DNA of 64,000 nt from Anaeromyxobacteraceae bacterium (GTDB lineage Bacteria; Myxococcota; Myxococcia; Myxococcales; Anaeromyxobacteraceae): assembly GCA_047602405.1 (NCBI GenBank), contig JASGHJ010000002.1:2304001-2368000 (forward strand). The letters are read 5' to 3'. Positions 3,723 to 23,884 of this stretch are shown in pieces; the stretch's first letter is position 1, and every line of letters begins with the position of its first letter. The notes under the pieces were generated by a model. That model made no database searches. It was given only the letters and a program-made list of their open reading frames with translations, and was not told the origin of the DNA. Made by a program: the position numbers and the translations under genes.

Positions 3723-3796
3723 TGACCCCGGCGTGACTCGAACACGCGACCTGCGGTTTAGGAAACCGCCGCTCTATCCGGCTGAGCTACGGGGCC
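3723..3796 (-). tRNA. tRNA-Arg (anticodon CCT)
   Basis: Reverse complement GGCCCCGTAGCTCAGCCGGATAGAGCGGCGGTTTCCTAAACCGCAGGTCGCGTGTTCGAGTCACGCCGGGGTCA folds as a cloverleaf; CCA not encoded. Confidence 0.96.
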
Positions 3797-20635: not shown

Positions 20636-21236
20636 GTGAAGAGGTTCTCGCTCGCAGCAGTGCTCGTCGCCGCCCTGTTCGCCGCCGCTCCCGCGCAGGC
20701 CCAGACGAAGAAGGCCGCCACGGCGCCTGCCACCACCGCCACCGCGATCGCCGCCGACGGCGGCCCGACGATGGACAACGAGATCTCCGCGTGGGGCATC
20801 CTCGGCTACGGCTACCTCGACACGGGCTTCGGGCTCGGCGCGCGCTACCAGAAGATCCTGGTCCCGGCCTCGAAGAAGCTTCCTCAAGCTCCAGAACGGC
20901 ATCCGTGACGAGATCGGCATCGAGGGCGGCCTCGACTTCGTCCACTACAGCTACGGCTACTTCGGCTACGACTGGACCTACAACGAGTTCTCGTTCGTGG
21001 TCGGCGGCACCTGGAACTTCTGGCTGAACGAGAAGCTCGCCGTCTACCCGAAGATCGACCTCGGCTTCGGCTTCGGCTCCTGGTCATCGAACGTGACCGG
21101 CCTCGGCGACCCGAACACGGGCGGCGGCCTCTTCCTCCAGGGCGCCGCGGGCGTCGTCTACAAGCTCGACCGCCTCGCGCTCCGCGCGGAGCTCGGCACC
21201 CGCTACCTGCGCCTCGGCGCGGGCTTCAACTTCTGA
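20636..21236 (+). CDS. Small outer-membrane beta-barrel protein (frameshift ~20876)
   Basis: Signal peptide, alternating aromatic strands, ends LRLGAGFNF. Confidence 0.75.
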
Positions 21237-21308
21237 GTTTCACGGGGGGCCGTAGGCCCCCGCCCCATGAGCAGAGCTCATGGGGCCCCACCCCTGGATC
21301 AGCTCCGC
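21231..21308 (+). repeat. Dispersed palindromic repeat, copy 2
   Basis: Hairpin CCCCATGAGC-AGA-GCTCATGGGG; flanks shared with 5437-5512. Confidence 0.7.
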
Positions 21309-21359
21309 CTGGCCGCAGCCGCTTCCGCGGCTGCGGCGAAGGCTTCGCTGGGGGAAACG

Positions 21360-21398
21360 AGAAGGGCCCGGTCCGTCCGACCGGGCCCTTTGTCTTTC
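21360..21398 (+). terminator. Intrinsic terminator-like hairpin
   Basis: AAGGGCCCGGTC...GACCGGGCCCTT followed by TGTCTTT. Confidence 0.7.
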
Positions 21399-21438
21399 CT
21401 GGCCCCTGCGTCCCCACCTCCTGGTGACGTTTCAGATG

Positions 21439-21706
21439 GGCCTCCTCGCGGGGTCTCTCCGCTCCTCGGGCGCAAGGCAAAGGCCCGCCGCGTGGGGGAT
21501 CCTGGAGACGCTGCGGAGAAGGGGACCGCCGCGGCACCACCACGCGCGCCGGGCGAGGCGGGGGACGTGGGGAACGGGGCAGAAGCGGGTCGATGACGGA
21601 GGCGCGGTGCTGGCCGCCTCGCCCGTCACGCTTGGTGCAGATCGCGGCTCCGATCTTGGGCGGGCCTGCCGGCGCCCTGCGGGGCGGAGAGACCCCGCGA
21701 TCGGCC
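21439..21706 (+). repeat. Structured ~268-bp element, unit A
   Basis: Perfect 17-bp inverted repeat 21446-21462 / 21684-21700 with further nested pairing. Confidence 0.75.
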
Positions 21707-21830
21707 CACGGAGCGTGGCGATGTGGTGAGGGCACCTGTTCCAGGCGCTGACGCCCACCCGTCCCGTCCGCGCGCCGATCCCATCCGCCCCGCCACGTGC
21801 GGCCCTTCCCCGAACCTCGACGCCCCCTGC

Positions 21831-22079
21831 GGCCGATCGCTGGGCCTCTCCGCCCGGAGGGCCCTCGGCTGACCCGCCCGACCCTCGGACCGGATGCGAC
21901 GACCGCGTCAGGACGAGGCCGCGCGCGACGCCTCGATCCACTCCACGACGCCCCTGCGGCCGAGTCCTGGCGCGCCTGTCGTCGCAGCGGGCCACCCCTT
22001 CTCGCTCCCTCCCCGGCCACGGTGAACCGGCGGGGCCTTGCCCAAGGGCCCGAGGACGGAGAGGCCCAGCGAGGAGGCC
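21831..22079 (-). repeat. Structured ~249-bp element, unit B (inverted, diverged copy of A)
   Basis: Perfect 16-bp inverted repeat 21837-21852 / 22057-22072; same asymmetric ends as unit A. Confidence 0.75.
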
Positions 22080-22108
22080 GCCACCGAGACGCCGGCAGGG
22101 TCGAGAGG

Positions 22109-23884
22109 TTAGGCGAGCTCCAGCCACTCGAACCAGACCGGGTGGTTCGCCTTGTACCAGAGGAGCACGTCCCGGATGCGGGCCTGCTTCTCCTTGGGCA
22201 TGACCTTGTCGTCGACGCGGTCGAAGTGGACGCGGATGTGCTCGCCGTCGTGCTCGAGCGCCTGCGAGAACATGGTCTGCAGCTCGTTCCGGATGCGGCC
22301 CGAGTCGGAGATCTTCACGGCGCGCTTCGAGAAGTCGACGCCGGAGAGGAACCGGACGAGGAGCGGGCTGAAGACGTGGCGCATCTCCTCGAACGGCTCC
22401 ATCAGCTTCAGCGTGAAGGTGATGAGCGACGAGGCGTTGCGGGTCGCGAGCCGGGTGGTCACCGCGTAGCGGCCGTCGCCGAGCTCGCGCACGCCCTCCA
22501 CGCCGGTGTACGGGTCGAGGCACATGTAGCCGAGGCTCGCGAGCACCTTCCAGCTCTTCTCCGGCAGGAAGTCGTCGGCGCGCAGCACCCGGCGGCCGAT
22601 CTGCAGCGGCATGTTGGACTGCTCGGCCTCCCGGATCGCGTCGGCATAGTCCTTCACCTTGCCGTCGTCGAGCGGCACGCCGCCGTGGATCTCGGCGACC
22701 CGCTTCGCGAAGTCCGGCGCGTCGGGGTCGAGGAGCATGAGCTTGCCCTCCTCCTGGCAGGGCAGCTCGAAGGTCGGCGAGAAGCAGGCCATCGTGGCGT
22801 CGACGTCGAGGACCTCGGAGAGGCTCGAGGCCTGCATCGCCTCGGCGGTCGCCGCGTAGCCGTCGCACAGGAACACGTGCTGCGCGCCCGCGGCGTCCTT
22901 CCAGGCGCCGACGAGGAAGGTCGGGGCGTACGTGCCGGAGTCGGTGAAGACCTCGGCGCCGGCCGGCGTCTTCCACCCGTCCTCGACGAGGTGGACGCCG
23001 AGCGCCTTCCACTCCTCCCAGAGCTTGCCGAGACGGGCCACGCGGCTCTTCCCGCGCAGCGTCCAGACGTGCACGTTCTTCCGGTCGAGCCCCGGGTACG
23101 CCGCCTCGACCGCCTCGATCACCTGCTTGCGTGGCGTGCGGTAGTCGAGGAGCACCGAGTTGCGCTCGGCGGTCTCGGCCACGTGGCGCGGCACGGTGAG
23201 GCGGCCCATGTACGACTCGTAGGGCTTCGAGACCGTGAGCGGCGAGTCGAACAGGTGCAGCACCGCCATCGGGCCGGTGCTCTTCCCCTCGGCGAAGCGG
23301 GAGGTGTTCTCGAGCGTGTCGATCGCGGCGCCCCAGACCGTGATGCCGCGGCGCTGCAGCCCGGAGTAGAACTCGTCGAAGCCGTGCGCCGGATCGTTGA
23401 GGAGCCGGTGGACGGCGCGGTCGACCTGGCGGGCGACCTCGGGCCGGGCGTACACGCGCCCGAAGCCGAGCAGCGGGTTCGCGCCCATCTCCGGCGTCTC
23501 GCCGGCCTTCGGCATGAGCCCCTCGCCGAGGGACACCATGATGGCGTGGTTCTCGGGGAGCGTGCGGGTGAGGTGCCAGAGCCCCTCGCTCATCACGTAC
23601 GCGCTGATGGCGTCGGCGGCCTTCTTCACCTGGTTGTAGGTGGACTTGTCCTTGCCCGCGCCGCCGCCGAAGTCGCCGAAGAGCCGCGTGCCGAGGGCCG
23701 TGGCCGCGGACGTCAGGGCGAGGCAGCGCGCGATGCCGCGGGGCGTGAACGTGAAGGCCGAGACCGGCTCCGCCTGCGCGCGGTCGACCTGGACGTCCTC
23801 CAGCCAGAGGTGGAAGCGGGTGAGCACCGGCCGGGTGTCGTAGGCCCACTGGGCGACGAGGTTGCGCTTCGCGGCGTCGGGCAT
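22109..23884 (-). CDS. Hypothetical 591-aa protein with GlpX/FBPase class II-like motifs
   Basis: VSLGEGLMPK...PEMG and AIDTLENT resemble GlpX IGEGE..EAPML and AVDPLEGT. Confidence 0.6.
   Translation of the reverse strand: MPDAAKRNLVAQWAYDTRPVLTRFHLWLEDVQVDRAQAEPVSAFTFTPRGIARCLALTSAATALGTRLFGDFGGGAGKDKSTYNQVKKAADAISAYVMSEGLWHLTRTLPENHAIMVSLGEGLMPKAGETPEMGANPLLGFGRVYARPEVARQVDRAVHRLLNDPAHGFDEFYSGLQRRGITVWGAAIDTLENTSRFAEGKSTGPMAVLHLFDSPLTVSKPYESYMGRLTVPRHVAETAERNSVLLDYRTPRKQVIEAVEAAYPGLDRKNVHVWTLRGKSRVARLGKLWEEWKALGVHLVEDGWKTPAGAEVFTDSGTYAPTFLVGAWKDAAGAQHVFLCDGYAATAEAMQASSLSEVLDVDATMACFSPTFELPCQEEGKLMLLDPDAPDFAKRVAEIHGGVPLDDGKVKDYADAIREAEQSNMPLQIGRRVLRADDFLPEKSWKVLASLGYMCLDPYTGVEGVRELGDGRYAVTTRLATRNASSLITFTLKLMEPFEEMRHVFSPLLVRFLSGVDFSKRAVKISDSGRIRNELQTMFSQALEHDGEHIRVHFDRVDDKVMPKEKQARIRDVLLWYKANHPVWFEWLELA

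Follow-up and report, generated by a model that had tools for sequence, protein, structure and literature searches.

MITEs and mobile insertion cassettes are non-autonomous, multi-copy elements with related inverted ends and occasional cargo, while the attC site of integrons folds from a single strand and has extrahelical bases and an apex that varies. A third kind of folded DNA is the single-strand promoter, of which Frpo is said to prime replication as well, an observation credited to Masai and Arai in 1997. Promoters of the Frpo/ssi kind lie in the leading regions of F, ColIb-P9 and pESBL, and those described in the relevant sections of two reports rebuild -35/-10 boxes on conjugative plasmids (PMC12672017, bioRxiv 10.1101/2023.02.15.528439). 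Here we compare with such systems a pair of facing hairpins from an Anaeromyxobacteraceae bacterium, found in a stretch of 64,000 nucleotides (positions 2,304,001 to 2,368,000 of contig JASGHJ010000002.1, assembly GCA_047602405.1), which we call the window.

Unit A, of the long type, occupies 21417..21731 on the + strand, with a leader at 21417-21438, a rod-like fold-back core at 21439-21706 and a 3' tail reaching to about 21731. Unit B, of the short type and of the most diverged subfamily, faces it on the - strand at 21815..22100, with a leader at 22100-22080, a core at 22079-21831 and a tail that runs to about 21815-21806. The spacer between the two tails (21732..21814) is unique in the genome and holds no cargo gene here. 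The units are 61% identical over the aligned core, and both are unusually stable when folded, with z-scores of -5.25 for A and -5.44 for B and 0/200 shuffles equally stable. An earlier note, made from the letters of the window, had described two inverted, diverged elements here, and its stems, two covarying pairs, asymmetric ends and nested stems were all recovered at these positions. It had placed the ends correctly for the cores, but about 20-25 nt short for the units, which the family alignment and the joints of empty sites extend by a 5' leader of ~20-22 nt and a 3' tail of ~25 nt; the leader boundary of unit A is backed by an empty-site joint at a sister locus. The internal GAGAAGGGG that it had reported as shared is indeed in both A and B, but only 3/20 members of the family have it, at the position of a variable side loop. 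As for its statement that no credible ORF covers the gap, mechanical open reading frames do cross it, but a codon model calls none.

To the left of the pair, and convergent on it, is a gene at 20636..21236 (+) that is outer-membrane-protein-like by eye and has no Pfam match. This gene is split over two frames at 20876, and because the contigs of runs X1 and X3 are one base shorter there, the frame break may be an assembly error or a recent event. Between it and unit A lie a copy of a separate repeat family, outside the element (21237..21352; 28 BLAST matches in the genome at E<1e-3), and a terminator-like hairpin followed by a T-rich run (21353..21399, +). The separate repeat measures ~70-115 nt, and similar sequence interrupts a four-helix cassette in another genome (G023, locus L081; by eye). 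To the right, a gene of 591 aa at 22109..23884 (-), also without a Pfam match, has its stop 30 nt from unit B. The sole Rfam match in the window is a tRNA gene at 3723-3796 (-).

A search for further copies of A and B in the genome, which the earlier note had proposed, revealed a dispersed repeat family. In the genome holding the window (G000; 6.16 Mb, 98% complete), BLAST and an HMM built from its matches recovered 20 full units and 2 partial (half) units at 14 loci. The cores of the full units are 241-272 nt long, leader and tail being extra, and their mutual identity runs from 56 to 92%. Gaps between convergent genes hold 13 of the 14 loci, and the fourteenth too if a weak 45-codon ORF is real, against a background of 150 convergent gaps among the 1009 gaps longer than 250 nt in this genome. 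Nine loci consist of two facing units or of a unit with a collapsed partner: seven have two full units, at a distance of 93-155 nt in six cases and of 1 kb in the seventh, and two have a unit beside a partner whose interior was deleted between its basal arms. A long type is joined to a short type in eight of the nine (typing by eye from the alignment), which suggests, so far as sequence can tell, that the family's cassette has distinct left and right ends. Within the rod, the outer and inner shells have separate histories and both arms of one shell move together (r is 0.69 and 0.88 for the arms of one shell and about 0.2 across shells), a pattern that contiguous inner-tract conversion for the most part explains. 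Microsatellite flanks are a weak feature of the units, at 3/20 and 4/20 against a null of 4.8%. Also in this genome is a family of short REP-like palindromes, of whose 198 copies 72 lie in convergent gaps; co-location of the two families, at 3/14 loci against 38/231, is without enrichment.

The distribution of the family is narrow. Among 37 genomes of the genus, its pattern matched 20 sites in G000, three decayed sites in a second genome (G010) and one site by chance, and the family is confined to two of the 37. In wider collections, the exact pattern was found in one stretch of a genome contig collection (Anaeromyxobacter sp.) and gave 0 matches in viral contigs. Four metagenome matches and one in G019 were judged to be chance, as the similarity covered the pattern only, and a weak match in G012 (E 1.5) was left unconfirmed.

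At both sites tested, the pair is absent or reduced to one unit in close relatives, and its presence therefore varies. The empty-site comparison suggested in the earlier note found pair-less alleles at each, in sludge contigs that were aligned at relaxed identity and whose diverged flanks do not allow exact junctions, or insertion as against deletion, to be read. At the window site, one contig joins both flanking genes, 96-98% identical, across ~112 nt where the window has 876, and keeps only a 37-nt piece of the 3' end of B and its tail. At the second site (L002), contigs from runs X3 and X6 of one study have an empty allele, of which the longer side is 48 nt, and runs X3 and X9 have a one-unit allele (83 nt). 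One-unit alleles could be deletions from the pair or separate insertions. No target-site duplication was detected, either as an offset shared by the seven composites (best 2/7) or outside the leader and tail in the 20 units. Downstream of tsf, remnants were seen in both G000 and G010 (L001, L021), a different partner being kept in each, so that this insertion is probably older than the split between the two. In two soil RNA runs the flanking genes were covered by contigs and the units almost not at all, which says nothing about expression, since contigs cannot show absence.

The claim of the earlier note that structure is conserved over sequence gains support from covariation across the family. 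In the RNAalifold structure of the family alignment, 22 of 58 pairs changed on both sides, a count inflated by the relatedness of the copies, and 95.9% of paired cells can pair, as against 87.2% after column shuffling (0/500 as high) and 37-47% in slid controls. Mean RNA z is -7.8 on each strand, from only 12 shuffles per sequence. As DNA, the fold has a z of about -7 to -8 on both strands (antisense -8.4, sense -6.7), and with the sense DNA MFE lower in 14/20 units the antisense strand is not clearly favoured. The polarity that had been claimed for the elements thus holds for their sequence but not for their folding, both strands folding about equally. The Rfam scan that had also been proposed assigned the units to no described family: no unit matched at the gathering score, and the four matches at E 1.6-8.5 were none of them within cores.

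In the 3' arm of every unit, at a distance of 80-85 nt from the end of the core, is the box Y-G-x-C-R-Y-R-N4-K-Y-G-C-A, with a T at position 2 in one copy. The consensus of sigma54 promoters is of the -24/-12 type, and the box has this spacing, which the invariant core positions fit. On the top strand the -24 dinucleotide is GG in four units, GT in 12, GA in three and TG in one (n=20). The 5' arm keeps the complement with GG in 20/20 units, and its -12 partner is offset by +3 in 20/20, the offset being set by a 3-nt bulge whose sequence differs between subfamilies. Because the top-strand GG is broken in 16/20 and the other arm is 3 nt out of register throughout, it is likely, on the modelled fold, that in most copies neither strand of the duplex has a good box and that the folded antisense strand would rebuild one, its non-template arm supplying the GG and the other arm fixing the spacing. 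The units have a further bulge just past -12, the place at which sigma54 forms its fork junction according to part of PMC5095919.

In unit A, the 3'-arm box is at 21624..21639 (+), with the -24/-12 spacing intact and GT in place of GG, and the 5'-arm half of the core is at 21534..21551 (+), where the complement has the -24 GG and the hairpin bulge shifts the -12 partner out of register by 3 nt. The box of A scores only 5.2 bits on a sigma54 matrix with position 3 left free; its predicted start would be near 21650, directed towards the spacer. The corresponding box of unit B, at 21895..21910 (-), has GA in place of GG and scores 10.7 bits with position 3 free, with a predicted start near 21884 that would likewise point towards the spacer; its 5'-arm half (21968..21985, -) has a complement with an intact -24 GG and the 3-nt bulge. 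In 18/20 units of the family, no position-3-free site scores better than the box, which keeps the same place. On this matrix, which is crude, was built from 24 seed sites and for which the family counts as one draw, 10/20 units reach 10 bits as compared with 6% of random 260-nt windows. The matrix did not pick the boxes of the four-helix hairpins of G000 and G010 described below. An rpoN gene is present in G000, and upstream regions in this genome show a spacing peak at -24/-12, with 38 matches against 6-13 at other spacings. Two observations count against the split-box reading or go beyond it: four of the 20 units retain GG on the top strand, and about 150 nt of outer stem is conserved, more than a promoter accounts for.

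The same core is found outside the family. A strict scan of G000 gave 15 intergenic matches, including eight family units and two hairpins before four-helix-bundle genes. With both arms required, the pattern matched 33 sites in 13/301 genomes of the order (control 1), 47 sites in 17/92 genomes at family rank (reversed control 0) and 55 sites in 29/355 genomes of the phylum (control 7). At family rank, 45 of the 47 sites end in CTGC, though the pattern did not demand it. Looser searches were less informative: a phylum-wide pattern without the inner pairing gave 33 sites that were mostly noise, and the core without its -12 part matched many chance sites. Viral contigs gave 7 + 1 matches to the core motif, none within an extended hairpin, and a relaxed scan of G000 showed no further family with the core before a nuclease.

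Hairpins with this core also precede genes for four-helix-bundle proteins of the PF05635 family. The hairpin accompanies 20 of 30 PF05635 loci in genomes most of which were selected because they contain the motif, and in every one of the 20 the top strand reads GT and the opposite arm GG. Their 5' arm carries a box that is in register and points outward in the duplex, and they are not split like the gene-less family. Two solo PF05635 genes are immediately preceded by intact boxes of the plain kind (16.7 and 15.5 bits). None of the family units has a PF05635 gene behind it, the nearest of the nine such genes in G000 being 82 kb from a unit. We also considered, and rejected, a role of the hairpin in unmasking a ribosome-binding site, which fits some four-helix hairpins, fails for the type in G023 and is inapplicable to the gene-less family. 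G023 itself has four near-identical facing four-helix cassettes (L072, L075, L078, L081) with long hexamer arrays on both sides in the same orientation, and hexamer arrays abut the hairpin of single four-helix cassettes in other genomes. At another locus (L163; G051:C2:1207000-1215000), two identical units of transposase, hairpin and four-helix gene are inverted around 2.4 kb without called genes; here the four-helix cassette is riding with an IS.

Other occurrences of the core are near conjugation genes. At four of five non-family loci that were picked by eye, a coupling-protein gene lies 0.3-4.6 kb upstream and is oriented the same way; ssb is present at three, ParB at two and a Replic_Relax relaxase at one, and three could be read as split, with an offset of +1. 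That places hairpins with the core downstream of coupling-protein genes in four other Myxococcota genomes. Several of the other matches are inside coding sequence and probably due to chance. At L212, L213, L214, L215 and L223, in conjugative-element-like regions, a family of ~70-aa beta-rich proteins without a Pfam match is encoded just downstream of the core. A further genome, G222, has its own gene-less family with the same core, in four copies of 205 nt with an offset of +5. One facing pair of these (L217:2160-4073, G222:C253) is inserted at a site flanked by a nifA-like and a nifH-like gene, both identified by eye. Between its two hairpins are genes for a lipoprotein-like and a YcxB-like protein and the remnant of a phage integrase (E 2.7e-4, below the cut-off). 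At L097, L099 and L110 (G002, G017), hairpins that have this core but no gene stand directly after host stop codons, and are possibly further gene-less families of the same kind.

Our best explanation, to which we give a probability of about 0.5, is that the repeat is a non-autonomous, gene-less cassette whose ends may be single-strand-DNA promoters of the sigma54 type, pointing inward and serving to prime or to express cargo. The strand antisense to a unit would fold and be read, its arms assembling a -24/-12 promoter that is broken in the duplex and that would point into the spacer. Host sigma54-RNA polymerase would bind the folded end, and the RNA would prime synthesis of the second strand on a single strand that has been excised or transferred, express cargo between the ends, or both. 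Two facing units would provide one usable copy per strand, a protein supplied in trans would move the cassette through a single-stranded form, and convergent gaps may be the least harmful landing place. Against the promoter stands the finding, in parts of two reports, that sigma54 normally requires its activator even on melted DNA (PMC5095919, PMC7057263). A wider proposal, which we put forward tentatively and think rather doubtful, is a class of transposase-free mobile cassettes in which host sigma54 polymerase would read the folded end of any strand that is released or transferred, prime the second strand and switch on captured cargo; the repeat would be its gene-less chromosomal form, with a core common to four-helix cassettes and myxobacterial conjugative elements.

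The earlier note had suggested looking for a RAYT/TnpA or other transposase, and none adjoins a family copy at any locus; a search for Y2_Tnp was empty, but so was its control, and it carries no weight. An outsized pair of REPIN-like palindromes, mobilised in trans by an HUH transposase of the RAYT or TIRYT type, with the conserved mismatch and bulge as marks for that enzyme and the sigma54 likeness incidental, seems unlikely to us. The inverted doublet seen at nine of the 14 loci is the usual REPIN-like form, and the facing dimers, the singles that are often remnants of pairs, the preference for convergent gaps and the want of a target duplication all match REP dimers and REPINs as partly described in PMC3733652 and PMC3116915; the genome also has six Y1_Tnp-like matches, one over the cut-off, and 9/20 leaders contain CGTC. 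The units, however, are ~300 nt rather than 20-40 nt and contain no 20-40-bp palindrome, GTAG is in 2/20 leaders, no RAYT is flanked by a unit, and no Y1 gene is within 1.5 kb of one, the nearest being 22 kb away. The core is also found ahead of four-helix genes and next to coupling-protein genes, positions that suit a promoter. MITE features fare similarly, with no fixed target duplication, ends 61% identical and no matching autonomous IS beside a copy. Less probable still is a structured 3'-UTR RNA (an mRNA stabiliser, an RNase III substrate or a 6S-like decoy for sigma54 polymerase) that shares a transcript with the gene upstream and was dispersed through gene conversion. All 20 units are indeed oriented like their nearest upstream gene and begin 23-211 nt past its stop, the sense RNA MFE is lower in 20/20 and G-U pairs are present in the outer helices of the sense strand. 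Co-orientation, however, follows from the facing layout within convergent gaps, the sense RNA z-score is better in only 8/20, a terminator-like hairpin precedes unit A, and the element, which close relatives lack at the corresponding sites, matches nothing in Rfam. Of the two possibilities raised in the earlier note, a structured ncRNA or a REPIN/MITE family, the repeat is thus favoured over a host ncRNA, given the variable presence between close relatives and the restriction to two of 37 genus genomes, while, on the hallmarks examined, REPIN and MITE do not describe it, there being no REP-sized palindrome, no flanked RAYT and no target duplication.

Least probable of all is that the units are attC-like folded sites used by a tyrosine recombinase to capture and shuffle gene cassettes. 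At one locus (L003), a full and a half unit in direct orientation enclose a 219-aa TPR-like ORF that has low GC (0.62) and a single homologue, the shells of the rod have separate histories with their arms moving together, and the facing pair in G222 encloses two cargo genes and the phage-integrase remnant. Against this, R''/R' boxes are present in 0/20 units, no integron integrase (TIGR02249) was over the cut-off in G000, G010 or G222, a result to be read with the fact that no control genome was over it either, the nearest tyrosine recombinase in G000 is 52 kb from a unit, and the larger part of the shell pattern can be put down to inner-tract conversion. Readings as a retron, an omega-RNA or a bridge RNA were set aside, there being no copy next to a gene of these kinds: of the eight reverse transcriptases in G000 none adjoins a unit (nearest 4.5 kb), and the eight IS110 matches are all outside the 14 loci. 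Seven of the reverse-transcriptase matches have the same score and frame length (C1:439597, 557811, 2073934; C2:769786, 1212582, 1713502, 1787451) and probably represent a recently spread group II intron. The three GIY-YIG genes are at least 59 kb from any unit. Conjugation genes, sought in G000 by tblastn with three coupling proteins and one relaxase, gave no match, and the units lie between ordinary chromosomal genes.

If the sigma54 reading is true, a polymerase normally locked until an ATP-driven activator opens it would be usable on folded single-stranded DNA, and the gene-less repeat, the four-helix-bundle cassettes and myxobacterial conjugative elements would have a working part in common. 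Twenty natural variants, with mismatch and bulge invariant, are available for testing the idea directly in vitro. Should the promoter not hold up, what is left is still an unusually large, lineage-restricted paired-hairpin repeat. A literature search, mainly of open-access main texts, found no account of the repeat or of a sigma54-type single-strand promoter, and no paper was found on the hairpins of PF05635 cassettes. What appears to be new here, on the evidence of sequence comparison, is the link between the gene-less repeat and split-core hairpins elsewhere, together with the empty-site alleles.

Compared with the known systems, the repeat is like MITEs and mobile insertion cassettes in being non-autonomous and multi-copy, with related inverted ends and occasional cargo, but it lacks their target-site duplication, its ends are only 61% identical and it is the fold rather than the terminal sequence that is conserved. 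It folds, as attC does, with extrahelical bases and a variable apex, and at one locus has a cargo gene between direct copies, but it is about twice the size and is without R boxes or an integron integrase. With REPINs, or REP dimers and their RAYTs, as portions of PMC3116915 and PMC3733652 present them, it has in common inverted pairs in often convergent gaps, compensatory changes, remnant singles, heterodimers and no target duplication; its partners, however, are ~10x REP length and form multi-helix rods, no RAYT is flanked, and the copy number (22) is low. The PF05635 cassettes (23S-rRNA-IVS / Avd-like) have the same two-arm core, a variable apical loop, a bubble or bulge just past the -12 box and, in G000, G010, G023, G014 and G024, the facing two-unit layout, whereas the repeat is gene-less and has a much longer outer stem, without similarity outside the core, and a 3-nt bulge that breaks the 5'-arm box. 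From the Frpo/ssi promoters, to judge by the sections of those reports that describe them, it differs in having a -24/-12 core where theirs is -35/-10, and in hairpins that are chromosomal, dispersed, face-to-face and mostly gene-less, so that by location it is not a member. It resembles them in folding back into a long, imperfect hairpin, from whose arms a promoter is predicted to be reassembled when the DNA is single-stranded, and in a core that, in other Myxococcota, is also found near coupling-protein and ssb genes.
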